Part shown: positions 27,461 through 51,371 of the stretch, in pieces
Position numbering within the stretch: the first letter of the stretch is position 1
How the letters are laid out: each line of letters begins with the position of its first letter
From: Candidatus Levyibacteriota bacterium
GTDB lineage: Bacteria; Patescibacteriota; Microgenomatia; Levybacterales; UBA12049
Length of the DNA stretch: 64,000 nucleotides
Reading direction: 5' to 3'
NCBI GenBank assembly: GCA_029260965.1
Contig: JAJDCG010000001.1
Location: 376,012 to 440,011 of the forward strand
The notes under the pieces: generated by a model
Told to the model about the DNA's origin: nothing
Databases searched by the model: none
What the model saw: the letters and a program-made list of their open reading frames with translations, nothing else
Program-made: the position numbers and the translations under genes

Positions 27461-28990
27461 ATGGTAGAAAGTTTTATGGAATTTATAAAAAGAAATTACT
27501 TTTCGATTTCAGTCATGGGGTTAGCAGTTTTGTACTTTACGCTTCGTCTTAATAATATTCTTTCGCTTCCTATATTCACTGATGAAGCAATTTATGTTCG
27601 CTGGAGTCAGATCGCATCAAACGATGCAAGCTGGCGGTTCATCTCACTTACCGATGGCAAGCAGCCAAGTTTTGTCTGGATCGCCATGATTTTGATGAAA
27701 TTTATCTCTGATCCGCTTTTGGCAGGTCGTTTGGTTTCTGTTTTTGCTGGTGTAGGTTCTGTCATAGGAATTTATTTTTTGGGAAGCGAGTTATTTAAAG
27801 ATCGGAAAATAGGTCTTCTGGCGAGTTTGATTTATGTAGTATTTCCATTTGCATTAGTGTATGACCGTCTCGCATTATACGATTCATTGGTTGGGATGTT
27901 TATCATCTGGGCAATGTATCTGGAGGTGCTTTTGGTGCGCAAGCCTCGTCTTGATACAGCACTCATATTGGGTATGGTAATCGGTGCTGGTATGCTTACC
28001 AAGACCAGTAATAATTTTGCGTTTATACTTCTTCCTTTTTCGCTTCTTTTGTTTGATTTTAAAAACAAAAAATGGAAGGAAAATCTTAAAAACTGGATAG
28101 TCTTTGCACTCATTGCAGTAGGACTGTCGCAGGTGATGTATGCAATTCTTAGACTTTCACCTTTTTATCACATTGTTTCAGATAAAAATGCAGTATTTGT
28201 TTACCCGATTAGTGAGTGGATCAGAAGTCCTTTTGCTTTTTTTACTGGCAACATAAAAGGACTTACGAGTTGGCTTTTTACATACATGAGTTATCCGTTT
28301 ATAGTTTTGGTGGTCTCTTCTTTTTTGATAGATAAAAAAACTTTTAGAAAAAAATTATTTTTGCTTGTATGGTTTGCTGCTCCGTTTTTCGCGCTTGCTC
28401 TTTTTGGTAAAGTAATATATCCGAGATTTATTCTTTTTATGAGCATGCCTCTTCTTCTTCTCGGAGCATATGCTTTGTTTAATCTGGTAAGAACAGCAGA
28501 AAAAAAATGGATGAAAATCACGATTCCTTTTGTCTTCCTGGTGGGTTTTATAATAAATGATTATTTCATTGTTACAGATTTTTCAAAAGCTTCCATACCG
28601 ACTGCTGATCGTGAACAATTTATCACGGATTGGCCAGCAGGTGTGGGTGTGAAGGAGACGGTTGAGTTTTTGAGACAAGCATCTAGCAATGAAAAGTTGT
28701 TTGTAGCAACACAGGGGACGTTTGGTCTTATGCCATATGCCTTGGAAATCTATCTTTCAGACAATCCAAATATAGAGATAAAAGGATATTGGCCGATTGA
28801 GGATCATCTAAGTCAGGAAATATTGGAAAAATCAAAAGAAAAGAAAACATATTTTATTTTTTACCAACCATGTCCTCCGTGCATGAAAACTGGTGTTGCA
28901 CCAAGTCAATATCCTCTTAAAGAGGTATTCCAAATAGAAAAAGAGCAAATGGGTAGTTATTACACTCTTTATGAAGTTCAAAACCTTTAG
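27461..28990 (+). CDS. GT-C membrane glycosyltransferase, ArnT/PMT-like (GT39/GT83-like)
   Basis: First extracytoplasmic loop carries FTDEAIY (DE motif) between TM1 and TM2. About 11 TM segments plus a C-terminal soluble domain. Confidence 0.55.
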   Translation: MVESFMEFIKRNYFSISVMGLAVLYFTLRLNNILSLPIFTDEAIYVRWSQIASNDASWRFISLTDGKQPSFVWIAMILMKFISDPLLAGRLVSVFAGVGSVIGIYFLGSELFKDRKIGLLASLIYVVFPFALVYDRLALYDSLVGMFIIWAMYLEVLLVRKPRLDTALILGMVIGAGMLTKTSNNFAFILLPFSLLLFDFKNKKWKENLKNWIVFALIAVGLSQVMYAILRLSPFYHIVSDKNAVFVYPISEWIRSPFAFFTGNIKGLTSWLFTYMSYPFIVLVVSSFLIDKKTFRKKLFLLVWFAAPFFALALFGKVIYPRFILFMSMPLLLLGAYALFNLVRTAEKKWMKITIPFVFLVGFIINDYFIVTDFSKASIPTADREQFITDWPAGVGVKETVEFLRQASSNEKLFVATQGTFGLMPYALEIYLSDNPNIEIKGYWPIEDHLSQEILEKSKEKKTYFIFYQPCPPCMKTGVAPSQYPLKEVFQIEKEQMGSYYTLYEVQNL

Positions 28991-30659
28991 TATTTTACTA
29001 GTCATTATTTTGCTTGCAATTTTTCTCCGGTTTTTTCGACTGGACAGTATCCCAAATGGGCTTTATCAGGATGAGACATCAATAGGTTATAGCGCATATT
29101 CGATAATTGAGACAGGAAAAGACGAGTATGGAAAAGATTTTCCTGTTTATTTTAAATCATTTGGAGACCAGAAGTTGCCTGTTTATATTTACTCGACAGT
29201 TGCATCTGTTAGGATGTTTGGTTTAACCCCGTTCGCAGTACGAACACCGTCCGCGTTTTTTGGCGTGCTGTCAGTTGTTGCATTTTTTTTCTTCGTTAAA
29301 TTTTTTACAAAAAGTGAAAATTTAGCACTCACATCAAGTTTTCTGCTTGCGATAAATCCATGGAGTCTTCATTATAATCGTGCAGCATTTGAGGTGAGCA
29401 TAGGACTTTTCTTGTTTATTGTTGGTGGATATCTACTTGGAAGATTTTTCAAAAACAGAACAAAGGGTGCATTTTTGGGAGGGACAATCTGTTTTGTATT
29501 GGCACTTTATTCTTATAATCTGACTCGACTTTTATCTCCGCTTCTTTTTCTTTTTTTTGTTTTTGTGTATAGAAATAAATTAAAAAGCGTATCAAAAAAA
29601 GAAGTAATTATAGCTATCACAGTTGGAGGATTTATGTTGATACCCTTTCTGACAAGCCTGATGGCTCCAGGTGGTGTTTCTTCAGCAGCAGGAACGCTTA
29701 TCAATTCGAGCGCAGTAGCTCAGGCACCCATTGCGGAATTGAGGGCATATATGCTTGCTCTCCCTACAGGTTTTGATAAGTTATTTTTTAATAAATATGT
29801 GCTTACTGGATGGCAATACGTCCAGAATATTTTTTCATATTTTTCTGTTGATTTTTTCTTTCTCAAAGGTTCTGGACACGGTAATCATGGAATGGGCAAT
29901 ATGGGATATTTTTATTTAGTAGAGTTGCCTTTTATTTTAATCGGAATTATTAGTTTTATCCGTAATAAAATTGCAGGGTTTGGCATGCTAATTGGATGGG
30001 GGGTAATTACAATTATGGTAGCCTCGCTTACTAGAGAAGCACCACATGCAACCAGGAGTTATTTTTTAACTGTCCCGTTAATTATTTTTTCAGGCGCTGG
30101 AGTAATTAGTGTATTTGAATATTTAAAAAAAGTTAAGTCGCAGTATTTAAGAAATTTATTAATTTTGATAATTTCTATATCAGCTTTTTATAACTTAACT
30201 TATTATTTTTTAAATTATTATATACGTTTTCCAGTTGCGTTTGCCGAAGACTGGAGGGCGCAGGACGTAGAATTGGTAAATTATCTAAAAAAAAATGAAG
30301 ATAAGTTTGAAAAAATAATTATTGATCCTAGGTCAAAATTTATTTACACTTCTCATCTTTTTTATACGAAATACGATCCTATTATGTTTCAGGAAACAGT
30401 AAAGCGATCACCTGATGATCCAGAGGGTTTTAGCGTTGTTAGATCTTATGGAAATTTTGAATACAGAGATATTGATTGGGAGGAGGATCTAAATTCACCA
30501 AAAACTTTAATAATTTCTTCTCCTGATTTTGCGCCTTATGATCTGGATGCGGATTTTATTGTTTTTCACCCTGAATATCCTGTTGCATTCGCAAAGGATC
30601 AGAAAGTAATACTGAATTTGGTGAATGATAAAGCATATGTCTTATTTGAAACAAAATAA
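28971..30659 (+). CDS. GT-C membrane glycosyltransferase, PMT_2-like paralog 1
   Basis: YQDETSIGYSAYSIIETGKDEYGKDFPVYFKSFGDQKLPVYIY and FGLTPFAVRTPSAFFGVL, shared with the ORFs at 43300, 44955 and 49830. C-terminal soluble domain with REAPHATRS. Confidence 0.65.
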   Translation: MKFKTFSILLVIILLAIFLRFFRLDSIPNGLYQDETSIGYSAYSIIETGKDEYGKDFPVYFKSFGDQKLPVYIYSTVASVRMFGLTPFAVRTPSAFFGVLSVVAFFFFVKFFTKSENLALTSSFLLAINPWSLHYNRAAFEVSIGLFLFIVGGYLLGRFFKNRTKGAFLGGTICFVLALYSYNLTRLLSPLLFLFFVFVYRNKLKSVSKKEVIIAITVGGFMLIPFLTSLMAPGGVSSAAGTLINSSAVAQAPIAELRAYMLALPTGFDKLFFNKYVLTGWQYVQNIFSYFSVDFFFLKGSGHGNHGMGNMGYFYLVELPFILIGIISFIRNKIAGFGMLIGWGVITIMVASLTREAPHATRSYFLTVPLIIFSGAGVISVFEYLKKVKSQYLRNLLILIISISAFYNLTYYFLNYYIRFPVAFAEDWRAQDVELVNYLKKNEDKFEKIIIDPRSKFIYTSHLFYTKYDPIMFQETVKRSPDDPEGFSVVRSYGNFEYRDIDWEEDLNSPKTLIISSPDFAPYDLDADFIVFHPEYPVAFAKDQKVILNLVNDKAYVLFETK

Positions 30660-32211
30660 AAACAACATACTAATAATTTTATTTTTGATCGTGGTTATGT
30701 TACCAGCGGTTTTTCCACTTCTGAGAGAGGGTTTTTTCGTAACAGATGATGCAGAGTGGATGATAATACGTTTTTCTGCATTTCATGAAGCATTTCGTGA
30801 TGGTCAATTTCCAGTTCGATTTTTAGGAAGGTTAAATCATGGGTTTGGCTATCCAGCACCCACATTTTTATATCCAGGTTTTATGTATATTGCAGAAATT
30901 TTTCATCTCCTTGGAGTTGAATTTTTAGAGAGTATAAAAATGGTTATTTTATTTTCTATTGTTTTGTCGGGTATATTTACCTTTTTTTGGTTGAGAAAGT
31001 TTTTTACTTTACTACCATCTTTTATAGGAGCAATTGTTTATGTTTATTCACCCTATCATTTATATGATGTGTATGTCAGAGGTTCTGTAGGGGAGGTGCT
31101 TGCGATTGCAGTCCTTCCTTTTATACTCTGGCAGATCGAGCGAAAAAGCGTTTTCTGGACAGCACTGAGTATTGGGCTTTTGATACTTTCCCACAATATA
31201 TTGGCTGCTATGTTCGTACCGCTAATTGTTGCATATATGATTCTTGATTGGTATGTGCTGAAAAAAACACAGACACATTTTTTTATTCAAACTGTTTTTT
31301 TTGGACTCGGAATATCTTCGTTTTTTTGGATACCAGCATTAACTGAATTAAGACATACAGTTTTTCTTGATACAAATATTTCTGATTGGAGTAGATATTT
31401 CGCAGATATAAATTTGATAGGAACCAAAACTTTGGCAGTTCTTCTTTTTGCATTGATCAGTATGGTAAGTAAAAAAATATCGATAAAAAAGCATCGTCTT
31501 AGTGTGTTCTTTTTTATAGTAGGTACCTTGGTAGTTTTTATGTCAAGTGTATTAAGTATGTTTATTTGGAAATTTTTTCCTGTTCAGTTTATCCAGTTTC
31601 CATACCGCTTTTTATCAATAGCGCTTATCAGTACGGCTTTTTTGATGGCAGTAAACATCACTGTTTTAACAGGGGTTAGGAAAAAGTTTTTTATTGGGTT
31701 GGTAGTTGTTATTTTAGCTATCCCATTTTTTGCTCGTATGAGGGCTATTGAGTTTATTGACAAAGGTAACGGGTTTTATGCGACTAACAATGCAACAACC
31801 ACCATACACGATGAATATATGCCTGTTTGGGTAAAGGAAATTCCAATGACTGGTGTGTATAATAAAGTAGAGATTATCAATGGCGATGGGGGTGTAAAAG
31901 ACTTGATAGTAACAAATGACATGATCAAATTTACGACAGATATAAAAAGTACTGCTGTTGCACGGGTAAACACAATTTATTGGCCAGGATGGAAAGTCAG
32001 TATTAATCAGGTGCCTGCTGATTTAGATTATTCAAATAAAAAGGGAGTAATGGACATAAAGGTTCCCAGGGGGCTATCTGTGGTTGAGCTGACTTTCGAT
32101 GAGACCCTGATGAGAATGTTTGCAAATACAGTATCTATGACTAGTATGATATTTTTGATACTTATTGCCTTGATAAACAAGAAAAATAAATTTTTATTAT
32201 GGAATTCGTAA
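30625..32211 (+). CDS. polytopic membrane protein, 6-pyruvoyl-tetrahydropterin-synthase-related family (putative GT-C)
   Basis: N-terminal DDAEWMIIRFSAFHEAFRDGQFPVRFLGRLNHGFGYPAPTFLYP fits the PTPS-related membrane family signature (DD..H..R...G.FP.RW...GYGYP.F.FY.PL). About 13 TM segments plus a C-terminal beta-rich domain. Confidence 0.5.
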   Translation: MIKHMSYLKQNKNNILIILFLIVVMLPAVFPLLREGFFVTDDAEWMIIRFSAFHEAFRDGQFPVRFLGRLNHGFGYPAPTFLYPGFMYIAEIFHLLGVEFLESIKMVILFSIVLSGIFTFFWLRKFFTLLPSFIGAIVYVYSPYHLYDVYVRGSVGEVLAIAVLPFILWQIERKSVFWTALSIGLLILSHNILAAMFVPLIVAYMILDWYVLKKTQTHFFIQTVFFGLGISSFFWIPALTELRHTVFLDTNISDWSRYFADINLIGTKTLAVLLFALISMVSKKISIKKHRLSVFFFIVGTLVVFMSSVLSMFIWKFFPVQFIQFPYRFLSIALISTAFLMAVNITVLTGVRKKFFIGLVVVILAIPFFARMRAIEFIDKGNGFYATNNATTTIHDEYMPVWVKEIPMTGVYNKVEIINGDGGVKDLIVTNDMIKFTTDIKSTAVARVNTIYWPGWKVSINQVPADLDYSNKKGVMDIKVPRGLSVVELTFDETLMRMFANTVSMTSMIFLILIALINKKNKFLLWNS

Positions 32212-33941
32212 AAAAGAATATTTTTATAATACTACTTTTGATTTTGTCTTATTGGTCTTTGAAGCCACTATTTCACTCTAATTTTTTTCCAATACATGAC
32301 GACATACAGGTTGCAAGAGTTTTTGAAATGCACAAGGCACTAGATGACGGCATGTTTCCTGTGAGATGGAGTCAGGGTCTTGGTTATAATTTTGGATATC
32401 CGATATTTAATTTTTATGCACCCCTAGCTTATTATCTTGGGGCATTAGTAATGATATTGGGATTAGACGCTTTGTCTGCAACAAAAGTCATGATGGGGGT
32501 GGGAATATTGCTTGCTTTGGTTGGGATGTACTTGTTTGCTAAAGAGATTTGGGGTAGAAGGGGTGCTTTTATTTCAGCACTTTTATATTTATATGCACCA
32601 TATCATGCAGTGGATATTTATGTTAGAGGAGATGTTGCAGAGTTTTTTGCGTATGGTTTTATCCCGTTTGTTTTCCTTGGGATTTATAAAATTTATAAAA
32701 CAACAAAGGAGTATGTTGATGTTAAAAACAAAAATAAAATTTCTGCTCTTAAAAAGAAAATATGGAATTGGGTAATTCTTGCCTCTTTGTCGTTTGCAGC
32801 TGTTATACTTTCTCACAACCTAAGTGCGATGATGGTGACACCATTTTTACTTATATTTTCCTTTTGTTTGTATATTAGCTTGCGAAGAAAAGAAAAATTG
32901 TACAATCCTTATTTTATTTTTTTGAGTTTGATAGTGGGTATTCTAATTGCAGGATTTTATTGGGTACCAGTATTTCCGATGATGCAGTACACAGATGTAT
33001 TGTCAGTGGTAGGTGGAGGATCATATTACGGAGATCATTTTGTATGTATTGGTCAATTGTGGGATAGCCCTTGGGGATTTGGTGGTTCTGCGCCTGGATG
33101 TATTGATGGTATTTCACTAAAGATAGGAAAACCTCATTTGCTTCTTGGATTGACATCTCTCATTATGCTAAGTTTTTTTAGAAAAAAGCTAAAATATAAC
33201 AAAAAAGTAGTATGGTTTTTTACTTTTTCATTTGTTTTTTCAATTTTTTTGACAATTGAACAATCAAAATTTATTTGGGACATTTTATCTCCAATGGCAT
33301 TTTTTCAATTTCCTTGGAGATTTTTACTTGTTGCTACTTTTTTTATCTCATTCTTGGGTGGGGGACTTTTTTATGTTTTGGATATGATTATTTCAAATAA
33401 TAAAAGACTTAATCCTTTTTATACACTTTTCCTATTAACAATAGCATGTGCGATCTTGTTTTATAATGCAAAGCTTTTTAATCCACAAATTTTTAATACC
33501 AAGACAGTCGAGGATTATACATCTTTTGACGAGGTATCATGGCGAGTGTCAAAGCTATCTGATGAATATATGCCACCAGATTTTTTTAGACCCTTGGGCA
33601 TTCGGGTCGTGCCCAAAAACAAAATAATGAACACCATGCAAGTTAAAATTTTGGAGCAAATAGAAAAAACAAACCATCTCTTTGCAGTCGTTGAGGCATC
33701 GTCTGAATCAAAACTGACTGTAAATCTTGCCTATTTTCCTGGGTGGCATGTCTATATCGACGGTAGACAAGAGTGGTTTAGTTACTTCAACCAGGGTTTA
33801 ATCATAAATATTCCAGAGGGTAGGCATGATCTAGACATTGTTTACCAGCAAACACCCGTACAGATAATGGGAAACATACTTACTATCACTGGATCACTAA
33901 TACTTCTTATTGGTATAATTAAACTCAAGAAAGATAAATAA
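32199..33941 (+). CDS. polytopic membrane protein, PTPS-related family, tandem paralog
   Basis: HDDIQVARVFEMHKALDDGMFPVRWSQGLGYNFGYPIFNFYAPLAYY. C-terminal YFPGWHVYIDG parallels IYWPGWKVSIN in the upstream paralog. Confidence 0.5.
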   Translation: MEFVKKNIFIILLLILSYWSLKPLFHSNFFPIHDDIQVARVFEMHKALDDGMFPVRWSQGLGYNFGYPIFNFYAPLAYYLGALVMILGLDALSATKVMMGVGILLALVGMYLFAKEIWGRRGAFISALLYLYAPYHAVDIYVRGDVAEFFAYGFIPFVFLGIYKIYKTTKEYVDVKNKNKISALKKKIWNWVILASLSFAAVILSHNLSAMMVTPFLLIFSFCLYISLRRKEKLYNPYFIFLSLIVGILIAGFYWVPVFPMMQYTDVLSVVGGGSYYGDHFVCIGQLWDSPWGFGGSAPGCIDGISLKIGKPHLLLGLTSLIMLSFFRKKLKYNKKVVWFFTFSFVFSIFLTIEQSKFIWDILSPMAFFQFPWRFLLVATFFISFLGGGLFYVLDMIISNNKRLNPFYTLFLLTIACAILFYNAKLFNPQIFNTKTVEDYTSFDEVSWRVSKLSDEYMPPDFFRPLGIRVVPKNKIMNTMQVKILEQIEKTNHLFAVVEASSESKLTVNLAYFPGWHVYIDGRQEWFSYFNQGLIINIPEGRHDLDIVYQQTPVQIMGNILTITGSLILLIGIIKLKKDK

Positions 33942-34660
33942 TGGAAAATAAGCTATCAGAATTATCAATATTTTTTCCTTTTTGGGATGAGGAACAAAAT
34001 GTCAGGGGAGTAGTTACGCAAGCAATTCCTATTGCTGAAAGTGTGGCGAAAAAATGGGAAATTATCATGATTGACGATGGATCAGCTGATAAAACTTTGG
34101 AAGTAATGAAGGATATGGCAGAAAAAGATAAAAGACTTAAAATAGTTCATCACAAAATAAATAGAGGTTATGGTGCAGCTCTAAGATCAGGTTTCGAAAA
34201 TTCGCAATATAAATATATAGTCTTTACAGATGGAGATGGGCAGTTTGATTTTTCAGAAGTAGATAAGTTTGCAGAAAAAATAAAATCAGCTGACATAGTT
34301 GTAGGTTTTCGAAAAAAGAGGCGTGACCAAAAGATATTAAAAAGGCTTCTCTTGATGAATCTTTTGAAAGTATGGGATTTTATACTTTTTAGATTTTATT
34401 TCAAAGACATTGATTGCGGATTTAAGATGTTTAGAAAAGAAGCTATTGAAAAATTGAATCCGCTTAGATCAGAGGGTGCGATGATAACATCAGAAATATT
34501 TGCGAAAGCAAAAAGAAAAAAATTAAAACTGGACGAGGTCGGTATTACCCATTATCCACGAACTGTTGGTCATCAAAGTGGTGCAAATATCCCCGTAGTT
34601 GTACGTGCAGTTCTTGAGAGTTTCATTCTCTGGTACGATTTACATTATGGAAGGACCTGA
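33941..34660 (+). CDS. GT2 glycosyltransferase, DPM1/GtrB-like
   Basis: IIMIDDGSADKT, FTDGDGQFD (DxD). 239 aa, no TM segments. Confidence 0.8.
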   Translation: MENKLSELSIFFPFWDEEQNVRGVVTQAIPIAESVAKKWEIIMIDDGSADKTLEVMKDMAEKDKRLKIVHHKINRGYGAALRSGFENSQYKYIVFTDGDGQFDFSEVDKFAEKIKSADIVVGFRKKRRDQKILKRLLLMNLLKVWDFILFRFYFKDIDCGFKMFRKEAIEKLNPLRSEGAMITSEIFAKAKRKKLKLDEVGITHYPRTVGHQSGANIPVVVRAVLESFILWYDLHYGRT

Positions 34661-37898: not shown

Positions 37899-38659
37899 TG
37901 AATAAGTTGTCGGTTGTTATTATCGCAAAAAATGCAGAGACTGTGATCGCGGACAGTATCGAATCTGTGCGTGGTTTTGCATCAGAGGTCATAGTTATAG
38001 ATGATGGTTCGACTGATCATACAGTTGAGATCGCCAGGTTGTTGGAGGCAAAAATTTATGAACATAGAGAAAAAAGTTTTGCTGAAAAGCGTAATTTTGG
38101 TCTAAAAAAAGCCAAATATAAATGGATATTTTATATAGACGCAGATGAGAGAACCACACCTGATTTGGTAGAAAGTATCAAGAAGCAGGTATTGGGCACA
38201 AATAAGATTGAGTTCGCTGCATTTGCTGTAAAAAGGAAAAATTTTTATCTGGGAAAGCACGAATGGCCTCAGATTGAAACACACACCAGAGTGTTTGATA
38301 GAAAATTTTTGAAGAAATGGCAGGGCGATCTGCATGAAACTCCTGTAGTTGATGGAGCAATAGGACTGCTTGATGGGCTTCTTGTGCATTATACTCATCA
38401 GAGCTTGGAGGCAATGATAGAGAAAACAGTGGAGTGGTCGGAGGTAGAGGCAAAGCTTAGATTCAAGTCTGGGCATCCCCGAATGAGTAGTTGGCGTTTT
38501 TTACGAGTGATGATGACTGCTTTTTATGACTCATATTTTCGTCAAGCTGGATACAAAGCAGGAACTGCAGGTTTGATAGAAAGTATTTATCAGTCATATA
38601 GCATGTTTATTACGTATGCGAGGCTTTGGGAGATGCAAGAAAAAAAATTTTCTAAATAA
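37898..38659 (+). CDS. GT2 glycosyltransferase (LPS-core-type)
   Basis: LSVVIIAKNAE, VIVIDDGSTDHT, IDADER. TAATG overlap with the upstream gene. Confidence 0.8.
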   Translation: MNKLSVVIIAKNAETVIADSIESVRGFASEVIVIDDGSTDHTVEIARLLEAKIYEHREKSFAEKRNFGLKKAKYKWIFYIDADERTTPDLVESIKKQVLGTNKIEFAAFAVKRKNFYLGKHEWPQIETHTRVFDRKFLKKWQGDLHETPVVDGAIGLLDGLLVHYTHQSLEAMIEKTVEWSEVEAKLRFKSGHPRMSSWRFLRVMMTAFYDSYFRQAGYKAGTAGLIESIYQSYSMFITYARLWEMQEKKFSK

Positions 38660-38908: not shown

Positions 38909-38979
38909 AATTCTTCAATAACTATAGCATTTATGATGATAGACATGCAAGAAGCTCCAAAAATTGGTAGAATTAAATT

Positions 38980-43299: not shown

Positions 43300-44958
43300 A
43301 TGATTAGACAGTTATCAAAAATAAACATTCTCTTATTATTCATAATAATTATTGCTTCATATCTCCGCTTTTTTCAGCTTGATATAAATCCTCCCTCTCT
43401 TACATGGGATGAGGCAGCATGGGGGTACAATGCATACTCACTCGGTATTGATGGGCGTGATGAATTCGGGCGCTTTTTGCCCATAGATTATCTAGAGTCG
43501 TTTGGAGATTTCAAGCCACCTATGTATGCGTATTTGGCAGTTCCGGCAGTAAAAATTTTTGGACTAAATGAATTTGCAACTCGTTTTCCATCAGCTTTTT
43601 TTGGCGTGCTTACGGTTTTCTTGACCTATTTTTTAGTAAAAAAGATTTTTCCTGGTCGTGAGTCTATTGCACTGTTTGCTACATTTTTACTTAGTATCTC
43701 ACCTTGGCACATACTTCTTTCACGAGCAGCATTTGAAGCGAATGTGGCAACCTTTTTTATAGTGTTGGGTGTTTTTACTTTTATCAAAGGAGTCAGGGAA
43801 AAGCCATGGCTTCTTATTTTGTCAGCGATTTCTTTTGTTTTTTCAATTTATACTTTTAATACAGCTCGTGTAGTTGCACCGCTTTTGGTTTTGGTTTTGA
43901 CAGTCGGATACAGGAGGAGGCTCTGGGATATTAAAAAGGAGTTTATCTCAGCAGGTGTTGTAGGTTTTTTGATTCTCTTACCCATTATTCCCTTTCTCCT
44001 TTCTCCCCAGGCAAGTCTTAGATTCAAAGAAGTAAATATTTTTTCTGATCTGAGTGTTATTGAGCGTTCTAATCAGGAGGTATTAAATGACAATAGTCTT
44101 TTTTATTCAAAAATAATTCACAATAGAAGGTTTTATTACGGAATAGAAGTTCTTAAACATTATTTTGATAATCTATCATTTGATTTTCTTTTTATATCAG
44201 GCGACGAGAATCCTAAATTTTCAACAAAAAACACAGGACAAATGTATTTATGGGAATTACCCTTTTTTATAGCTGGATTGCTTTTTCTTTTTAGAAAGCG
44301 TGAAGGGAGTTGGTGGATCGTTCCCTGGTGGCTTTTGGTGGGATTAATTCCTGCGTCTTTGGCGCGCGAGACACCTCATGCACTCAGAACGGAGATTGTT
44401 CTTCCGGTTTTTCAAATTTTGTCTGCAATAGGTGTTTTTACATTCTTGAATTTTTTGAATAATAAAAAAAGTTTTTCTACGAAGCTTGTTAACTCAATTA
44501 TTTTGATTATGTCAGTATTGCTTTTTATAAATGTATCTTATTTTCTACATGGATATTTTTTCCATTATCCTCGTGAGACATCAAGAGAATGGCAATGTGG
44601 ATATGAGGAGTCAATTGCTTACGTAAATGCTGTTTCAGGTCTTTATGATGAAGTAAGGGTTACTCGGCAATTTGGACGACCTTATATTTATTATTTATTC
44701 TATCTGAAATATGATCCTAGAAATTTTAGACGAGAAGCAGTGATTGATAGGGATGTTTTTGGTTTCGTAAAAATAAAAAGTTTTGATAAATATTATTTTG
44801 GTGATTCAGAAATAAATGTAGAGCCAGGTGATGATAAAAAAGTATTGGTGATAGAAACGCCAGAAAGGATACCAGAAAACAATATCAAAAAGCTTGAGGA
44901 GTTCAAACTGTTAAACGGCGATGGGGCATTTGATGCATATACATGGAGTAACTTATGA
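43300..44958 (+). CDS. GT-C membrane glycosyltransferase, PMT_2-like paralog 2
   Basis: TWDEAAWGYNAYSLGIDGRDEFGRFLPIDYLESFGDFKPPMYAY, FGLNEFATRFPSAFFGVL, RETPHALRT. Confidence 0.65.
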   Translation: MIRQLSKINILLLFIIIIASYLRFFQLDINPPSLTWDEAAWGYNAYSLGIDGRDEFGRFLPIDYLESFGDFKPPMYAYLAVPAVKIFGLNEFATRFPSAFFGVLTVFLTYFLVKKIFPGRESIALFATFLLSISPWHILLSRAAFEANVATFFIVLGVFTFIKGVREKPWLLILSAISFVFSIYTFNTARVVAPLLVLVLTVGYRRRLWDIKKEFISAGVVGFLILLPIIPFLLSPQASLRFKEVNIFSDLSVIERSNQEVLNDNSLFYSKIIHNRRFYYGIEVLKHYFDNLSFDFLFISGDENPKFSTKNTGQMYLWELPFFIAGLLFLFRKREGSWWIVPWWLLVGLIPASLARETPHALRTEIVLPVFQILSAIGVFTFLNFLNNKKSFSTKLVNSIILIMSVLLFINVSYFLHGYFFHYPRETSREWQCGYEESIAYVNAVSGLYDEVRVTRQFGRPYIYYLFYLKYDPRNFRREAVIDRDVFGFVKIKSFDKYYFGDSEINVEPGDDKKVLVIETPERIPENNIKKLEEFKLLNGDGAFDAYTWSNL

Positions 44959-46643
44959 AAAAAAACTTATTTCTTTTTTTAATAATTTTTTTAGCAACTT
45001 TGTTGCGATTTTATAATTTGGGAAGCACACCTGTATCGCTTGACTGGGATGAAGCAGCTCTGGGTTATAATGCATACTCAATAGCTGAGACTGGCAGGGA
45101 TGAGTATGGAGAATTTATGCCAGTAGTTTTAAAATCTTTTGGCGATTATAAACCAGCGCTTTATGCTTATCTTTCAGTTCCTGCAGTTAAAATATTTGGT
45201 TTAACTCCTTTTGCCGTACGAACGCCTTCTGCTTTATTTGGTGTTCTGACTGTTCTAGCGACTTATTTTTTAACAAAGGAGCTCTTTATCGGTACGAGAT
45301 CTTCTAAGCTAAAAAAGCTTATTGATCCTGAGTCTATTGCGCTTCTTGCTTCTTTTCTTCTCGCAATAAGCCCATGGCATATTCAGTTTTCGCGCACTGG
45401 TTTTGAGGCAAACGTGGCTCTTGCTCTTAATATATTTACAGCTCTCTTTTTTCTAAAGGGTCTCAAGAAACCATATTTTCTCATTGTCTCAGCAGTATTT
45501 GCTGCTTTTTCTATTTATTCATATCAAAGTGAGAAGGTTTTTGTCCCGCTTTTTGTTTTAGCGCTTATATTTATTTATAGAAAAAATTTATTCAGTTTTC
45601 CCAAAAAATATATCACACTGACAGCCGTTGTTGGAATTATTGTTATATTGCCAATGGTCAGTTATATTTTGAAAAATGATCAAGCGCTTTCTCGCGCGAG
45701 GGGATCACTTGTTTTTTCAAATGAAACAAAGCATCTTGAAGAAAATCAGAATAGAATTAGAATTGATAAAGAGAGATCAGATATCGTAGGTCTTGTTTTT
45801 GACAACAGAAGGATTTTGTATGTTAAATCAGCAATTGGCGGATATTTGTCGCATTTTGACATAAATTGGCTTTTTATCTCAGGAGATAGTGCCAGACATC
45901 ATGCACCTGGAATGGGAATTATGTATCTGTGGGAGTTACCATTCTTGCTGGTTGGAATATATGTACTTGTTTTTAACAAATTTTTTATTAAGGAAAATAA
46001 AAATGGAACAATATTTATTTTTGCATGGTTATTGATGGCTCCAATCCCTGCGGCATTTACAACAGATGTGCCTCATGCTGTTAGAACGCTTAATTTTCTA
46101 CCTACTTTCCAGATTTTTACCGCAGTAGGTTTGTTGATCGGAATCAGCAAAATATTAAGTATTAAATATAAAATATTAAGCATTAGAGTTTCCTTTCTTT
46201 TGCTTTTTGCTTATTGTTTATTTATTATTTTTAACTTTGCTTATTATCTTAACCAATATTTCGTGCAGCAGGATTATTTTTATTCAAAGTACTGGCAGTA
46301 TGGTCATAAAGAAACGATCGAATTTGTAGAAAAAGAAGCGGGTAATTACAATAAGGTAGTTGTTAGTAATGAAGATTTTCTAGACCAATCATATATATTT
46401 TATCTTTTTTATACAAAATATCCACCTCAGAAGTATCAAGAAGAGGTGGAATTACCCGCAAATACAAAGGGCAAAAACCGAGCATTTGGGATATATGAGC
46501 ATAGACCAATCAGGTGGGATAAGGAAGATAAAAATGCTGACATTCTATATGTTGGTAGACCAAGAGATGTAAAAAAAGATGCCCGTGTCCTAAAAATAAT
46601 TAACTATTTAGATGGGGAAGAGGCAATTATAATTTTTGATTAA
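44955..46643 (+). CDS. GT-C membrane glycosyltransferase, PMT_2-like paralog 3
   Basis: DWDEAALGYNAYSIAETGRDEYGEFMPVVLKSFGDYKPALYAY. FGLTPFAVRTPSALFGVL is near-identical to the block in paralog 1. ATGA start/stop overlap with paralog 2. Confidence 0.65.
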   Translation: MKKNLFLFLIIFLATLLRFYNLGSTPVSLDWDEAALGYNAYSIAETGRDEYGEFMPVVLKSFGDYKPALYAYLSVPAVKIFGLTPFAVRTPSALFGVLTVLATYFLTKELFIGTRSSKLKKLIDPESIALLASFLLAISPWHIQFSRTGFEANVALALNIFTALFFLKGLKKPYFLIVSAVFAAFSIYSYQSEKVFVPLFVLALIFIYRKNLFSFPKKYITLTAVVGIIVILPMVSYILKNDQALSRARGSLVFSNETKHLEENQNRIRIDKERSDIVGLVFDNRRILYVKSAIGGYLSHFDINWLFISGDSARHHAPGMGIMYLWELPFLLVGIYVLVFNKFFIKENKNGTIFIFAWLLMAPIPAAFTTDVPHAVRTLNFLPTFQIFTAVGLLIGISKILSIKYKILSIRVSFLLLFAYCLFIIFNFAYYLNQYFVQQDYFYSKYWQYGHKETIEFVEKEAGNYNKVVVSNEDFLDQSYIFYLFYTKYPPQKYQEEVELPANTKGKNRAFGIYEHRPIRWDKEDKNADILYVGRPRDVKKDARVLKIINYLDGEEAIIIFD

Positions 46644-48392
46644 ATGCTAAATATAAAAAAAATACTTAAACAAAATTATTTTTTAATAGGTCTTATACTT
46701 ATTATTTCTTCTTTTCATTTTTTATGGCTTGATCGAGTGCCACCTGGAATGTCTCATGATGAGGTTGTGTACTCTTTGAGCAGCAAGACTTTCAATTTGC
46801 AAGGAACTGATATAACAGGAACTGGTTTTCCAATTGGTTTGTTCAAAACGGAAACAGAAGGAAATATAAGCATCCTTCCTCTTATGCTTTTATCTCCCGT
46901 GCATTTTTTCCTTGAGCAAACTCAACAAAGCGCAAGGTTTCCATACGTTATTTTTATACATTTGAGCGCGTTGGCGATTTTTGTGATCGCTAAAAATCTC
47001 TTTGAAAATGAAAAGATAGGAATTATTGCCTTTTTACTGTTTCTTTTGGCACCCTGGAGTTTTTTCCTTGCTCGTTTTGCTGCTGAACCACCGATAGCCT
47101 TGGTATTTTATCTCTGGGCAATTGCAACGCTCTTTATGTTTAGGGGTAAAAAACTTTTATTGCCTTTTTTTCTTTTTGTTTTGGCATTTTTTTCTTACCA
47201 TGGAGGCAAGGTGCTCTTTCTTCCACTCGTTGTGGCCTGTTTAGGCTATTTTATTTACCAAAACAGATTAAGCAAAAAAGAGGCACTAGTTTTTTTCTTG
47301 GGAACAGTTTTTGTATTTGTCTCGTTTTTTACTACATCACTTAGTCTTCCTGGGGGAATAGTTGGGGAGCGGAAAAATGAGATTTTCTTTTTAAATCAAG
47401 AACTTTTGACAAAAGAAGTTAATGCAAAAAGGAAAATAGTTCTGGAAAATCCTTTTACACCCATATTTGTAAATAAAGCTACAATAGCAGGAGCTATTTT
47501 CTTTCAGAAATATTCGACAGCTTTTTCACCCAGAGTATTATTTTTGGAGGGCGATACTAGACTGGTTTATTCTTTTTTTTATCATGGCCTTTTATATGTA
47601 TTTGATGTTATTTTTATTTTGGTAGGGATAGTTTGTTTGTTTTTAAAGCAAAAAAAACCTGTTGTATTTTTCTTGCTTACATTACTACTGATTGCGCCAC
47701 TTCCTGCTGCAGTTAATGGGATAGAGAATTCATATATTAACCGTTCCAGTTTTTTGCTCCCCGTTCTTATGATTATATCTGCGTATGGTGTTTATAATAT
47801 ATTTATTATTGCCACAGAAAAGTTTTCAAAAATTTTGGTGATGGTCGCTTTGATTGCAGGACCAGGCATTTTCGTTTTTAACTTTTTGTTTTTCTATTTT
47901 TTCCAGTATCCTGTTGCTGTTGCGGATTATTATTCACTTGGTGAGAAGACGGCAGCATATTTTATAAAACATTCATGGGATGGAGAACAGGATATAGAGG
48001 TTGTAAAAAACGAGCCCGGCAATCTGTATCTTGAGACTGTTTTCTTTTTTCAAGATGAAAAGATTACAAATACTTTTCTTCAAAATATGGACGAGTTCAG
48101 AAATAATGTCTATAAACTTCCCAGAGTTACATTTGAGGGGGATTGTCCAACAGAATTTGATAAAGAAACAGTATATATTATCCAGGATGTAAAGGTGTGT
48201 GAGCTACCTTTTGCCAAAAGTTATACACTCAAAAGTCCTAGAGATGGTGGGGGTGTTTACACTATTTATAATTCAAGTTTATGTAAAGATTATCAGATTC
48301 AAAGCTGGCTTAGATATCATTACTCCAAGGATTTTGATATGGAGTCTATGGATACAAGAACATTTTGTGAGAGGTGGGTGTCTGGCGTATGA
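46644..48392 (+). CDS. GT-C membrane glycosyltransferase, divergent PMT_2/ArnT-like
   Basis: First loop SHDEVVYSLSSKTF...GTGFP carries the DE motif. About 11 TM segments plus a C-terminal soluble domain. Confidence 0.5.
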   Translation: MLNIKKILKQNYFLIGLILIISSFHFLWLDRVPPGMSHDEVVYSLSSKTFNLQGTDITGTGFPIGLFKTETEGNISILPLMLLSPVHFFLEQTQQSARFPYVIFIHLSALAIFVIAKNLFENEKIGIIAFLLFLLAPWSFFLARFAAEPPIALVFYLWAIATLFMFRGKKLLLPFFLFVLAFFSYHGGKVLFLPLVVACLGYFIYQNRLSKKEALVFFLGTVFVFVSFFTTSLSLPGGIVGERKNEIFFLNQELLTKEVNAKRKIVLENPFTPIFVNKATIAGAIFFQKYSTAFSPRVLFLEGDTRLVYSFFYHGLLYVFDVIFILVGIVCLFLKQKKPVVFFLLTLLLIAPLPAAVNGIENSYINRSSFLLPVLMIISAYGVYNIFIIATEKFSKILVMVALIAGPGIFVFNFLFFYFFQYPVAVADYYSLGEKTAAYFIKHSWDGEQDIEVVKNEPGNLYLETVFFFQDEKITNTFLQNMDEFRNNVYKLPRVTFEGDCPTEFDKETVYIIQDVKVCELPFAKSYTLKSPRDGGGVYTIYNSSLCKDYQIQSWLRYHYSKDFDMESMDTRTFCERWVSGV

Positions 48393-49837
48393 ACAAAAAA
48401 TTAAAAATACTTTTAATTTTAAGTATATTAATCCCGCTTGTGATTGCAGTAACCCGTATCATAAGCGGTAACATATCGTTTTGGTATGATCCCGCGCGCG
48501 ATTTACTTTTAGCGATTGACAATCATCAAAAATTCAGCCTTATAGGTCAGACCTCAGGAATTCCCGGCATCTTTTACGGTCCATATTGGATTTGGATATT
48601 AAGCATTGTACTTTTGGTTTTCAAGGATCCCAGAATTGTCGCGTTCATTGTTCTTACTATTCCTTACTTTACTATTTTCCCATTTATTTTATATAAATTA
48701 AAAGATGTTTGGGGGTTGTGGGTTTCAGTCATGCTTTGGCTTTTTTTCATGTTTTCCTACGATGGATACGTTATTCATCTCTGGAATCCACACCTTGCTC
48801 CAGTTTTGACATTAGCAACTGTTTATTTACTCTCAAAAATTGATTTTAATAATAAAAATTTTACTAAATTGAAGATTGCTGCACTAGCTGGATTTCTAGC
48901 AGGGTTTACAATGAATTTTCATATTTCTTTCGGTCTTGGACTAGTGATAGGATCCACAGTTTTCGTATTTTTGAGGCGTAATATCAAAGCATTTGCATTA
49001 TTTATAGCTGGTCTGGTTCTTGCGTTTGTGCCGTTTGTTGTATTTGAGCTGCGTCATGGATTTAACCAGGTATCAACAGTCATACAAACAATTACAAGCC
49101 CAACAGCAGTAGTCAGCGAGCAGTCAGGAGTAAGCACTCAGATCTTTTATCTATTTTTTGATAGTTTGTCACGGTTAATCAATATTCCAGATGGGGCAGG
49201 AATCGTTTTCTTTTTTACGGTAATAGTTAGTTTGTTTTTAAAAATAAAGAATAAAAAAATAAAACTCTCAAAGAATGAGAAAGGCATACTTCTTTTAACA
49301 TCGCTTATTTCACTTTCAACTCTTAGTATTTATTTGTTATCCAAAAATCCAGTTTGGGACTATCATTTTATTGGTTTTGAAATTTTATTTCTCTTTTTTT
49401 TGGGGATTATTTCCAAACATTTAAAAATATTTAGATACTTACTTATTGTATCTTTGTTAATTTTGATTTTGATAAAACTAGTAGATTTTTCAAAAGAAAT
49501 TAGCGCCAATCATTTATCAAATTCATCACTTGTCACAAAACAATATATAGTTGATATTATTTATTCAAATTCAGAAAATCGTGATTTTGGTGTCTTTACA
49601 TTTAGCAATACTGCATATGCTCCTGCTTTTGATTATCTTTTGATGTATCATGATGGTGTCAGTAATTATCGGGGTGAAGAGAGGGTGGATCTTGTTTATC
49701 TTATTATCCCATGGACTACAATTGATTTGAGAGATGATTTTATTGATAATAGGACACCAAATGAAGAATATGAAACAATCAAAAAATGGGAAATTGATGA
49801 TGGAACTCTATTATTGAGGAGGGAAAGATTTGAATAA
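48374..49837 (+). CDS. polytopic membrane protein (possible GT-C), unknown family
   Basis: 487 aa with about 11 TM segments. WYDPARDLL in the first loop. C-terminal soluble domain. 19-nt overlap with the upstream gene. Confidence 0.4.
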   Translation: MGVWRMNKKLKILLILSILIPLVIAVTRIISGNISFWYDPARDLLLAIDNHQKFSLIGQTSGIPGIFYGPYWIWILSIVLLVFKDPRIVAFIVLTIPYFTIFPFILYKLKDVWGLWVSVMLWLFFMFSYDGYVIHLWNPHLAPVLTLATVYLLSKIDFNNKNFTKLKIAALAGFLAGFTMNFHISFGLGLVIGSTVFVFLRRNIKAFALFIAGLVLAFVPFVVFELRHGFNQVSTVIQTITSPTAVVSEQSGVSTQIFYLFFDSLSRLINIPDGAGIVFFFTVIVSLFLKIKNKKIKLSKNEKGILLLTSLISLSTLSIYLLSKNPVWDYHFIGFEILFLFFLGIISKHLKIFRYLLIVSLLILILIKLVDFSKEISANHLSNSSLVTKQYIVDIIYSNSENRDFGVFTFSNTAYAPAFDYLLMYHDGVSNYRGEERVDLVYLIIPWTTIDLRDDFIDNRTPNEEYETIKKWEIDDGTLLLRRERFE

Positions 49838-51371
49838 AATGAAGTTTTTACTACTTTTTGCATTAATTACAATTGGAGGCTTTCTGAGAATTTTTAACGT
49901 AGATCAAAACCCTCCTGGTCTTTATATAGACGAGGTATCAATTGGTGTTAACGCTTACGAAATTCTTACTAGGGGAGTAGATGAGCATGGTGTGTCATTT
50001 CCCCTATTTTTTGAAGCATTTGGAGAATACAAGATGCCAGCATATATCTATCTCGTCTCAGGGGCAATGGCAGTTGTCGGCAAGATTGATCTTGCAGTAC
50101 GTCTTCCGTCAATCATTTTTGGCATTCTGACAATACCGCTACTATACTTATTTATTAGAAAGCTAATTGAGTTAAATCCGAAACAGATACAAAATAATAA
50201 ATTTCAAATTTCAAAATTCAAAATTCCAATAGTTGCGGCAGCATTATTGGCGCTCTCCCCTTGGCATATACACTTTTCTCGCGCTGGTTTTGAGGCAAAT
50301 GTGGCACTTTTTATCTTTCTATTGGGATCATACTTTGGGTTACTTTTTTGGAGTAATAAAAAATACAAATTTTTGATTTTATGTTTTATCTTTTTTTCTC
50401 TTACACTTTATACCTACAATGCCTATCGTGTAATTTCACCTCTTATGGTCCTGATTATTTCACTATTCATATTTTTAAAATTTATTAAGTTTAGAAAAAA
50501 AGTAGTTGCTGCGCTTATTGGTTTTGCACTTCTTATTTTACCTGTAGTTCAGTTTTCCATGACTGAGGCAGGCGCAACACGTTTTGATGATGTATCTGCC
50601 TTCACTAAGTACGAGGACAGATCTTCACAGGAAAAGCTGAAGATTTATCCTATGGAAGTGATGAATAACTATTTTTCTTATTTCTCTTTGGAATTTTTAT
50701 TTTCAACTGGAGACAACAACAACCGCCACCAACTGCCTGGCTTTGGTCTTGTCTGGCGCTGGCTTATACCATTTACCCTGATAGGTTTTTATCAGAGCAT
50801 GCACAGGAAAAATAAATTATTTAAATACTCATTTTTAACCATGTTGCTTCTAGCACCACTTCCAGCCAGCATTGTTCAGCCAAATCCTCACTCGCTAAGA
50901 TCACTTCTCATGGTACTTCCCCTCACTGTTTTTGCCGCATATGGTTTAGTTTGGTTTTTTGAACATTTTAAAAAATACAAGCTTCTTGTTGCTTTTTGCT
51001 TATTGCTTATCTCTTTTTACGAATTTAGTCTTTTCATGCACAATTATTATTTCCACTACCCGCGTGCAAACTCACCAGATTGGGGAGCAGGATACAAGCA
51101 GATGACATTGCGGATGAATGAGATAAAAAGTGGTTATGATCATATTGTGGTCGACCAAAATCTTTCGAATGCGTCTTCATATATTGATTTTTATGGAGAT
51201 GGTATTGAGCCATTGTATGTTGATACTTCGTGGACCAAACCAGATGCTTGGGATGAAGAGGATGTTTTGTATGTCAGGCCTTTTTACGGCAATCGAGAGG
51301 GAGAGTATATAATTGAAAATATTTATTTACCACAGAGAGATGATATACATGCGCAATTTTGGAAATTATGA
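49830..51371 (+). CDS. GT-C membrane glycosyltransferase, PMT_2-like paralog 4
   Basis: YIDEVSIGVNAYEILTRGVDEHGVSFPLFFEAFGEYKMPAYIY, PNPHSLRS, HNYYFHYPRANSPDWGAGY. Confidence 0.65.
   Translation: MNKMKFLLLFALITIGGFLRIFNVDQNPPGLYIDEVSIGVNAYEILTRGVDEHGVSFPLFFEAFGEYKMPAYIYLVSGAMAVVGKIDLAVRLPSIIFGILTIPLLYLFIRKLIELNPKQIQNNKFQISKFKIPIVAAALLALSPWHIHFSRAGFEANVALFIFLLGSYFGLLFWSNKKYKFLILCFIFFSLTLYTYNAYRVISPLMVLIISLFIFLKFIKFRKKVVAALIGFALLILPVVQFSMTEAGATRFDDVSAFTKYEDRSSQEKLKIYPMEVMNNYFSYFSLEFLFSTGDNNNRHQLPGFGLVWRWLIPFTLIGFYQSMHRKNKLFKYSFLTMLLLAPLPASIVQPNPHSLRSLLMVLPLTVFAAYGLVWFFEHFKKYKLLVAFCLLLISFYEFSLFMHNYYFHYPRANSPDWGAGYKQMTLRMNEIKSGYDHIVVDQNLSNASSYIDFYGDGIEPLYVDTSWTKPDAWDEEDVLYVRPFYGNREGEYIIENIYLPQRDDIHAQFWKL

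Follow-up and report, generated by a model that had tools for sequence, protein, structure and literature searches.

An anciently diverged array of GT-C glycosyltransferase paralogs in a Patescibacteria genome, with a probable role in stepwise extracytoplasmic glycosylation

Gene content of the glycan-biosynthesis locus

The window analysed here, i.e. the whole stretch of 64,000 nucleotides, derives, to judge by the names of homologs, from a Microgenomates/Levybacteria-like Patescibacteria genome and holds a conserved glycan-biosynthesis locus of approximately 38 kb, which extends from position 25468 to about 63059. According to Pfam and NCBIfam scans and to predicted structure, this locus comprises at least 11 GT-C membrane glycosyltransferases, and Pfam further recognizes Wzx, GT2, GT4, epimerase and methyltransferase genes. 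An earlier note on this DNA had singled out six GT-C open reading frames, here designated by their start positions (27461, 28971, 43300, 44955, 46644 and 49830). All six are present, with the positions and lengths given below, but the count is too low for the region, as five additional GT-C-type ORFs are found at 26241, 30625, 32199, 40035 and 48374. The features of the locus are the following:

25468..26226, + strand: small GT2, 252 aa, candidate polyprenyl-phosphate-sugar synthase (lipid-linked donor); Pfam Glycos_transf_2, 1.9e-25
26241..27446, + strand: MptA/MptB-like GT-C membrane protein, 401 aa; precomputed Pfam PF26314 MptA_B_family
27461..28990, + strand: remote PMT_2-type GT-C, 509 aa; Pfam PMT_2 1.2e-14, PMT 2.7e-7; family HMM 59.8 bits
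28971..30659, + strand: family paralog 1, 562 aa; 29-33% identical to 43300, 44955 and 49830, E 1e-64 to 1e-80
29217..29255, + strand: FGLTPFAVRTPSA block in 28971, end of EL1 and start of TM2
30625..32211, + strand: PTPS_related-type GT-C membrane protein, 528 aa; Pfam PF10131, 3.4e-11
32199..33941, + strand: PTPS_related/YfhO-like GT-C membrane protein, 580 aa; Pfam PF10131, 1.9e-10, and a YfhO C-terminus match
33941..34660, + strand: small GT2, 239 aa, candidate polyprenyl-phosphate-sugar synthase; solved-structure relatives
34599..36104, + strand: Wzx-type flippase; Pfam Polysacc_synt_3, 1.7e-45
36091..40038, + strand: three cytoplasmic GT2 (36091, 36993, 37898) and one GT4 (38980); Pfam
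40035..42326, + strand: YfhO-family GT-C, 763 aa; Pfam YfhO, 1.1e-24
42339..43292, + strand: GT2 gene directly upstream of the core pair; Pfam
43300..44958, + strand: core paralog A, 552 aa, modelled in structure
44955..46643, + strand: core paralog B, 562 aa, overlapping A by 4 nt; 40% identical to 43300, E 4e-114
45195..45233, + strand: FGLTPFAVRTPSA block in 44955
46644..48392, + strand: divergent paralog of the family, 582 aa, unmatched in Pfam; family HMM 338 bits
48389..49837, + strand: predicted GT-C-fold protein, 482 aa when counted from the ATG (start of the ORF: GTG at 48374); predicted structure
49830..51371, + strand: family paralog, 513 aa; identity of 29-33% to 28971, 43300 and 44955
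51359..51946, + strand: small multi-pass membrane protein, 195 aa, with no family match
52087..63059, + strand: epimerase, GT4 (53127, 56718, 61178), GT2 (55807, 57866, 59491) and three methyltransferases; Pfam
54573, inside 52087..63059, + strand: second Wzx-like gene; Pfam

The precomputed Pfam assignment of 26241 was not reproduced by a direct Pfam scan, which gave no match, and its resemblance to NCBIfam TIGR03459, alpha-(1->6)-mannopyranosyltransferase A (9e-12), lies under the model cut-off, while 30625 is a paralog of 32199 (E 2e-39). The gene order of 36091..40038 is repeated in two related loci, L002 and L005. Likewise, most related loci have a small GT2 similar to 25468 and 33941 ahead of the array, and a counterpart of the GT2 gene 42339 is kept upstream of it in most of them. 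Between 38 and 53 kb of the window, a scan for promoters and terminators found no excess over the shuffled expectation, and the PADLOC defence-system models gave zero matches.

Homology, fold and family assignment

The four main paralogs (28971, 43300, 44955 and 49830) match one another in BLASTP with E-values of 1e-59 to 1e-114 over approximately 480-540 residues, with identities of 29-40% in protein and 47-54% in nucleotide sequence. The remaining two had been described as more distant members carrying the same first-loop Asp-Glu, in accordance with what we find: 46644 is 24-26% identical to the main paralogs (E 1e-13 to 1e-18 over approximately 400 residues), and 27461, which in BLASTP matches 43300 with no better than E 2e-5 over 100 residues, is recovered by the family HMM (9e-18) and by Pfam PMT_2 (1e-14). 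The motifs previously quoted for the main paralogs are present, albeit with deviations, since 49830 displays VGKIDLAVRLPS and FGE instead and 44955 reads TDVPHAVRT where RE.PHA had been given. These motifs might have reflected nothing more than transmembrane composition; however, the main paralogs align over their soluble loops and are in fact most alike there (37-65% in EL1 and 43-79% in EL2), the TM segments being less alike. The family is very large: at E<=1e-30 it counts 6,182 representatives (clusters at 50% identity).

The proteins have a GT-C_A fold, a class marked by a membrane domain of 10-13 helices, juxtamembrane helices in the first extracytoplasmic loop and a structural likeness to STT3, PglB, ArnT and PMT. 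An Asp-Glu pair (D34-E35 of 28971, equivalent to D37-E38 of 43300) is invariant in all six ORFs and in 45 aligned family members. TM1 is followed directly by helix 36-51, and the pair, which probably has a catalytic role, occupies the N-terminus of that helix. Residues conserved in the ortholog groups of both 43300 and 44955 are found mainly in EL1 and EL2, which presumably form the donor-binding and catalytic core. Of 18 positions conserved within but different between these two groups, 7 fall in the outer region 236-318 and 4 around the loop 355-362. In view of this pattern, the suggestion that the paralogs diverged in acceptor specificity is a plausible one.

The databases label this family GT39/PMT_2. 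Relative to the gathering threshold of PMT_2 (PF13231; 26.1 bits), 27461, 43300 and 44955 lie above (55.3, 50.6 and 38.5 bits, respectively), 28971 and 49830 below (22.9 and 20.8 bits), and 46644 gives no match. For PMT (PF02366; 22.7 bits), 43300 (48.3 bits) and 27461 (30.9 bits) exceed the threshold, 28971 (17.2 bits) does not, and 44955, 46644 and 49830 have no match. Three of the six ORFs fall below or outside the Pfam thresholds. As a search of solved structures with the family profile returned only marginal matches (STT3, 0.007; ArnT, E 0.13), a comparison of folds was required to place the family.

In an alternative reading, these proteins would be true protein O-mannosyltransferases (GT39). 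Their targets would be pilins or other secreted or surface proteins and would differ from paralog to paralog, and 43300 and 44955 would form a heterodimer like yeast Pmt1-Pmt2. Nevertheless, STT3B (22.9), ArnT (22.6) and ALG12 (20.7) are structurally as close to the family as the PMTs, and ALG12, ALG9, AftA and AftD are all strong structural matches. The solved PMTs are not matched in sequence by the profile search, which retrieves only STT3 and ArnT, weakly, and identity to solved PMT and ArnT members is 11-17%. Pfam detects neither MIR nor PMT_4TMC domains in the six ORFs, and the model of 43300 has a C-terminal alpha/beta domain in their place. The combination of MIR and PMT_4TMC is a eukaryotic architecture, and actinobacterial Pmt enzymes are not known to carry MIR. 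Furthermore, the surroundings of the GT-C genes, with Wzx, GT2 and GT4, are those typical of polysaccharide loci. We therefore consider protein O-mannosylation an unlikely function of the array, although one that deserves to be kept in mind.

An ArnT-like (GT83-type) enzyme that modifies a membrane lipid with an amino sugar is a further alternative. However, the NCBIfam ArnT equivalog model NF009784 has a cut-off of 567 bits, and 27461, the only one of the six ORFs to match it, scores 28.6. Moreover, one lipid modification would hardly account for a set of 5-11 paralogs. Patescibacteria are reported to have no outer membrane (PMC7137472), and consequently lipid A would be absent from these organisms; no LPS genes were seen within the window. 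Such a modification is accordingly very unlikely.

The ORF at 48374, overlooked by the earlier note, belongs to a family that has no Pfam or NCBIfam model, and its structure is predicted to have a GT-C fold. Sequence homology of this protein to the main family is not claimed, as the profile-profile probability was 95% with a 5-sequence alignment and 3% with a 43-sequence alignment.

Inheritance and gene conversion among the paralogs

All window paralogs cluster with orthologs of their own from related Microgenomates genomes rather than with their neighbors, in clades with 93-100% bootstrap. Positional orthologs of the window paralogs in L002, L004 and L005 are 51-70% identical to them, in contrast to 24-40% among the paralogs themselves, and concerted evolution, in which copies within a genome are closest to each other, is not seen. 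Because each paralog clusters with its own positional ortholog elsewhere, the duplications are ancient, and the paralogs are old, stably inherited genes rather than recent recombining copies. Repeated duplication followed by divergence, as proposed earlier, is the right description of homologous but long-diverged proteins.

The ortholog of 44955 directly follows that of 43300 in at least 62 of the approximately 67 loci with room for it, usually with a 4-nt overlap, and the two constitute a near-universal, translationally coupled core pair. The other paralogs are accessory and come and go between species: 28971 has an ortholog in L005 (51% identity, 94% bootstrap grouping), 27461 has one at the same position in that locus (51%), 46644 in L002 only (62%), and 49830 in L002 (65%), L022 and L047. 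A scan of genome contigs with 28971 alone retrieved one locus, L005; a much larger yield came from scanning metagenomes with an alignment as query. Across 80 metagenomic loci the family HMM finds 2-6 members per locus (within 10 kb on each side), which fall into 24 clusters at >=45% identity.

A different view was taken in the earlier note, according to which high-identity blocks could mediate recombination between copies. In its full form, this view would make the paralogs recent duplicates, with recombination or conversion of near-identical blocks as the source of cassette-like variation of the surface glycan. This idea draws on an identical run of 13 residues, FGLTPFAVRTPSA, shared by 28971 and 44955 at sites 15,978 nt apart, and the run is real. 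It belongs, however, to a family-wide motif with the consensus FGLNEFAVRFPS, and at the DNA level only 31 of its 39 nt are identical; 5 of the 13 codons are the same and 8 differ at synonymous sites, so that the codon-level comparison proposed for this block speaks against gene conversion. Together with protein identities of 29-40%, these figures do not warrant the description of the main paralogs as close copies with near-identical blocks. Similar results were obtained beyond the block. Nucleotide identity between copies is 42-54%. No exact DNA match longer than 16 nt occurs in any of the 15 pairs of the six ORFs, and identical residues use the same codon with a frequency of 0.38-0.48, where 0.42-0.48 is expected from codon usage. 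Synonymous sites between the paralogs are saturated. The best direct repeat of the window measures 52 nt with 87% identity, and codon-level comparison of the 15 pairs found no conversion tracts. On the basis of the direct-repeat search, this comparison and the inspection of the block, gene conversion or recombination between copies is rejected for the window.

Conversion does occur in the family, in accordance with the recombination view. In fact, L066, a related metagenomic locus, displays a clean, exact conversion tract of 137 nt between its two adjacent core paralogs, which also serves as a positive control, as it demonstrates that the test is able to detect a real tract. The event is nevertheless rare, being found in 1 of approximately 235 pairs across related loci, and among 231 within-locus pairs from the 80 related loci protein identity does not exceed 43.8%. 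The paralog complement varies between genomes, as would be expected of cassettes, but these differences are between anciently diverged lineages and involve no new copies. A last point in favor of exchange is that at three positions the blocks of 28971 and 44955 agree in a residue uncommon in the family (T4 in 33, P5 in 7 and T10 in 0 of 170 members). Moreover, 43300 and 44955 have slightly more rare residues in common when they are co-resident than when they are not (2.7 versus 1.5, p=1e-5), and in view of both observations paralogs may have co-evolved, or may have exchanged sequence weakly or very long ago. As an account of this locus, cassette-like variation among recent duplicates has almost no chance of being correct, and the idea of phase- or cassette-like recombination can be removed.

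Proposed role in envelope glycan assembly

The small GT2 proteins encoded beside the GT-C genes resemble GtrB, DPM1 and ArnC, with E-values of 1e-10 to 1e-16 for 25468 and 33941. The best solved relatives of 25468 are the Dol-P-Man synthase of P. furiosus (1.7e-16), GtrB sll0501 and ArnC, and those of 33941 are ArnC (2e-14), GtrB sll0501 (3e-12) and Dol-P-Man synthase (1.5e-10). A scheme in which a lipid-phosphate-sugar synthase, a flippase and a GT-C enzyme act together has been described (PMC11127046). We favor the reading that the locus holds an anciently diverged array of GT-C paralogs, which probably carries out stepwise extracytoplasmic glycosylation with polyprenyl-phosphate sugars. The small DPM1/GtrB/ArnC-like GT2 proteins (25468, 33941 and 55807) would load a sugar onto polyprenyl phosphate at the cytoplasmic face, the lipid-linked sugar would reach the outer face of the membrane, and each GT-C paralog would then transfer it to its own site or acceptor on a glycan outside the cytoplasm. 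As acceptor, an oligosaccharide that the GT2 and GT4 enzymes of the locus make and the Wzx-type flippases export is likely, with a surface protein as the alternative. Hence, the paralogs would be stages of a single assembly line, in succession or as alternatives, rather than interchangeable cassettes. The donor sugar, the acceptor and even the activity are inferred.

The adjoining GtrB/ArnC/Dol-P-Man synthase-like GT2 and GT-C genes, as well as the presence of a YfhO member, recall the three-component GtrA/GtrB/Gtr*, CsbB/YfhO and polyprenyl-phosphoribose synthase/flippase/GT136 systems (PMC11127046). In contrast to these, which have one of each component, this locus has at least 11 GT-C genes and three candidate synthases, with no recognized GtrA-type flippase, and its genes are core and vertically inherited rather than phage-borne or serotype-converting. 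Among the window ORFs scanned, no GtrA- or MATE-type flippase was detected, only two Wzx-type Polysacc_synt_3 proteins, and a priming phosphoglycosyltransferase was likewise not detected in the window. The closest analogies are ALG3/9/12/6/8/10 of the ER lumen and MptA/B, AftA-D, EmbA-C and PimE of mycobacteria, in which each of many diverged GT-C paralogs contributes a single sugar or linkage on the extracytoplasmic side, with a lipid-phosphate sugar as donor. The MptA/B-like 26241 and the structural matches to ALG12, ALG9, AftA and AftD extend this likeness, whereas here the genes form a single co-directional cluster in a genome of approximately 1 Mb and belong to other sequence families. 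The family further differs from the PMT_2/GT39-GT83 GT-C_A enzymes (Pmt1/2/4, ArnT) in its low identity to solved members and its lack of MIR and PMT_4TMC, and from ArnT in an equivalog score far under the cut-off and in a host presumably without lipid A.

We may also hypothesize, tentatively and with more doubt than confidence, that the assembly line of at least 11 GT-C enzymes builds an envelope glycopolymer specific to Patescibacteria, in which 43300 and 44955 would form an obligate heterodimer like Pmt1-Pmt2. The variable accessory paralogs (including the Pfam-less family of 48374, and at least 24 clusters) would set a lineage-specific surface glycan code, with short conversions between neighbors, as in L066, as a minor source of novelty. 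If true, a code set by the accessory complement would be relevant to host attachment or phage evasion.

Patescibacteria, with genomes of approximately 1 Mb, have lost the majority of their biosynthetic pathways. The bacterium considered here still spends about 38 kb on surface glycosylation, at least 11 GT-C enzymes included. A Microgenomates genome paper counts 29 glycosyltransferase genes and goes no further (PMC7143001), a Saccharibacteria preprint calls glycosylation "unexplored" (PMC11623550), and literature searches for GT-C, GT39 or PMT arrays in CPR bacteria turned up no dedicated study. The present analysis provides a starting map of a core pair, variable accessory paralogs, candidate donor synthases and a GT-C family that databases do not recognize. 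It overturns no current view, its value residing mainly in annotation and in the choice of targets in the few cultivable relatives. A minor observation concerns the small membrane protein 51359, counterparts of which directly follow the 49830 orthologs in L002, L022 and L047, and which is a possible flippase candidate for the lipid-phosphate sugar.

Kinship and age of the six GT-C paralogs

The six GT-C reading frames that an earlier note had read from the DNA are all present, and are named here by their start coordinates:

27461-28990, more distant member
28971-30659, main paralog
43300-44958, main paralog, first gene of the core pair
44955-46643, main paralog, second gene of the core pair
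46644-48392, more distant member
49830-51371, main paralog

The encoded proteins are relatives with a similarity far beyond chance, since the four main paralogs align with one another over about 480-540 residues (29-40% identity, E 1e-59 to 1e-114), 46644 aligns with these four over about 400 residues (24-26%, E 1e-13 to 1e-18), and 27461, which shares 28% identity with 43300 over about 100 residues (E 2e-5), matches both Pfam PMT_2 (1e-14) and the family HMM built here (9e-18). Their description as close copies with near-identical blocks does not hold, the main proteins being no more alike than this and their DNA 47-54% identical. The motifs quoted for them do occur, with small departures mainly in 49830, and the 13-residue run FGLTPFAVRTPSA was confirmed in 28971 (29217-29255) and 44955 (45195-45233). 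In a multiple alignment, D34-E35 (28971 numbering) is invariant in all six. Among the four main paralogs identity peaks in two soluble regions, outer loop 1 (37-65%) and outer loop 2 (43-79%), and is lower in the transmembrane stretches; the resemblance is thus no artefact of membrane composition.

The source genome is a metagenome-assembled genome (MAG). Identical copies of the window's proteins are listed at NCBI, on a contig of 549,591 bp, and in the Logan assembly of SRR15505512, which holds a contig that matches the window base for base. Those homologs of 43300 that carry a source name are assigned to Candidatus Levybacteria/Levyibacteriota or to "Patescibacteria group", which corresponds to the Microgenomates group of Patescibacteria. 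Fully syntenic relatives with the same gene order were found in L002 (a 507-kb JGI contig), L004 (GCA_043823085.1) and L005, in which the positional orthologs of the window paralogs are 51-70% identical to them, versus 24-40% when paralogs within one genome are compared. In a bootstrapped neighbour-joining tree each window paralog pairs with its ortholog (93-100% support), and therefore the duplications are older than the split of these genomes. The repeated duplication and divergence proposed earlier is thus borne out as a series of ancient events, and there is no concerted evolution among the window paralogs. The record of L005 (CAZLZN010000016.1) is labelled "uncultured Gammaproteobacteria bacterium", and is syntenic with the window locus gene for gene, with a Lon protease 82% identical; this MAG is probably mislabelled or contaminated.

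Sequence exchange between paralogs

The more exciting proposal of the earlier note, that the shared blocks could allow recombination between copies as cassettes, finds no support in the window. The 13-residue block is identical at 31 of 39 nucleotides, with synonymous differences in 8 of 13 codons, and belongs to a family-wide motif (consensus FGLNEFAVRFPS) found across ortholog groups. At identical residues the same codon is used in a fraction of 0.38-0.48, as expected from codon usage (0.42-0.48; 15 pairs), and no conversion tract was found at the codon level in the block or in any of the 15 pairs. Uninterrupted nucleotide identity between any pair of the six genes extends over 16 nt at most. 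Between 26 and 52 kb, the best direct repeat measures 52 nt at 87% and falls within the SPWH...FEAN motif of loop 2. Accordingly, the blocks were rejected as recombination substrates or conversion tracts.

At three variable positions of the 13-residue block, 28971 and 44955 agree in having T, P and T. These states occur in 33/170, 7/170 and 0/170 family members, respectively, and the orthologs of the two genes carry N-E/N-N and F there. A very old micro-conversion, parallel change or co-evolution could account for the shared states, the first two being indistinguishable because the DNA is saturated.

While co-resident core paralogs were being tested for shared rare residues, one locus (L066, Ga0210057_1001922) was found in which the adjacent 43300 and 44955 orthologs share 50 identical residues and an exact match of 137 nt (10325-10461 and 12024-12160), which contains a threefold GTTATCA repeat and is flanked by ordinarily diverged sequence. 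Provided that it is no assembly artefact, this match represents a genuine short conversion tract, the only one in about 235 pairs within loci. Conversion can hence occur in the family, and the tests used here would have detected such tracts in the window. Co-resident core pairs share on average 2.7 family-rare states, versus 1.5 for non-co-resident pairs (Mann-Whitney p=1e-5; L002, L004, L006-L085), an excess for which a common bias in composition, parallel change, co-evolution between partners that interact, or rare or very old exchange of sequence could be responsible.

Variation around the core pair in related loci

A metagenome scan yielded 80 further loci. Of the roughly 67 loci in which there is room for both genes, at least 62 have the 44955 ortholog directly after that of 43300, mostly with an overlap of 4 nt, which suggests translational coupling. 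Around this pair the number of family members varies from 2 to 6 within 10 kb on each side (20 full-length loci). Clustering at ≥45% identity divides the 221 members into 24 groups, and within-locus pairs reach at most 43.8% identity (median 32%; 231 pairs). Copy number and content do therefore differ between species, through differential retention of ancient lineages rather than through fresh duplications. Rare orthologs, found in L002, L022 and L047, exist for 46644 and for the pair formed by 49830 and 51359. In these loci 51359, a 195-aa multi-pass membrane protein without family assignment (pair at 49830-51946 in the window), always comes directly after the 49830 ortholog; it could act as a partner protein or as a flippase.

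Fold, locus context and putative acceptor

Comparison with solved structures gave similar scores for several enzymes, at only 11-17% sequence identity:

STT3B, 22.9
ArnT, 22.6
Pmt4, 22.3
AglB, 21.2
ALG12, 20.7
Pmt2, 20.2

These comparable scores indicate a GT-C class A fold about equidistant from GT66, GT83 and GT39; a profile search of PDB sequences returned marginal matches at best. The family is very large (at E<=1e-30, 6,182 sequences that each represent a cluster at 50% identity), its database names are generic ("glycosyltransferase family 39 protein" or "ArnT-like"), and in 45 members the invariant outer-loop residues are D37, E38, D54, G57, G69, K72, W136, R142, E146 and R363.

The six genes are part of a glycan locus with all genes in one direction, which extends from 25468 at least as far as 63059 and also holds two Wzx-type flippases, three small GT2 genes, six other GT2 genes, four GT4 genes, one epimerase and three methyltransferases. 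Further membrane proteins of GT-C type had not been counted before:

26241, MptA/B-like
30625 and 32199, PTPS_related
40035, YfhO
48374, family without Pfam model

Sequence homology of the 48374 family to the main family is not claimed, since the profile-profile probability was 95% when the alignment held 5 sequences and 3% when it held 43; hhalign on shallow membrane-protein alignments calls for caution. Of the small GT2 genes, the two compared with solved structures, 25468 and 33941, have Dol-P-Man synthase, GtrB and ArnC as closest matches, and are thus candidate lipid-phosphate-sugar synthases. The window yielded no GtrA-type flippase and no priming enzyme.

The genes constitute an ancient, stably inherited GT-C-fold paralog family, with a conserved acidic pair in the outer loop, beside genes resembling lipid-phosphate-sugar synthases. 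We hypothesize that the small GT2 enzymes would charge polyprenyl phosphate with a sugar, that the lipid-linked sugar would be translocated, and that each GT-C paralog would then add the sugar at its own position on an extracytoplasmic acceptor. Other bacteria are known to use this general scheme, in which a synthase, a flippase and a GT-C enzyme act together (PMC11127046). The paralogs are new, uncharacterised members of a known enzyme kind. When 77 orthologs of 43300 were compared with 59 of 44955, residues conserved in both groups clustered in the first (32% of positions) and second (50%) outer loops, and of 18 positions conserved within but different between groups, seven map to the outer stretch 236-318 and four to the surroundings of loop 355-362. 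This pattern fits a common catalytic core with diverged acceptor recognition, and to that extent the suggested diversification of acceptor specificity. An acceptor of polysaccharide type is favoured by the Wzx/GT2/GT4 context, with a protein acceptor, as for PMT enzymes, as a serious rival, while an ArnT-like role on lipid A is unlikely, given that the organism lacks an outer membrane (PMC7137472). Three features stand out: how densely GT-C genes are packed in a reduced genome, the universal core pair, and the family without a Pfam model. They are of use to annotators and to later studies of the cell surface in Patescibacteria, a subject barely covered in the literature searched.

Other features of the window were also recorded. 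Inside the glycan locus, the stretch 54193-54576 between GT4 and Wzx-like genes codes for a "23S rRNA-intervening sequence protein" (PF05635, bAvd-like four-helix bundle), and two sizeable minus-strand ORFs without Pfam match lie at 5884-8229 (781 aa) and 8219-9403 (394 aa). Cumulative GC skew climbs monotonically over 1-64000, with nearly all genes on the plus strand beyond 20 kb, which recalls the strand-composition disparity described for a Microgenomates genome (PMC7143001). G+C is about 35%, falling to 0.27-0.30 in 58000-64000, where the distal glycan locus carries methyltransferase and GT2/GT4 genes; this segment may vary more than the rest or have been acquired.
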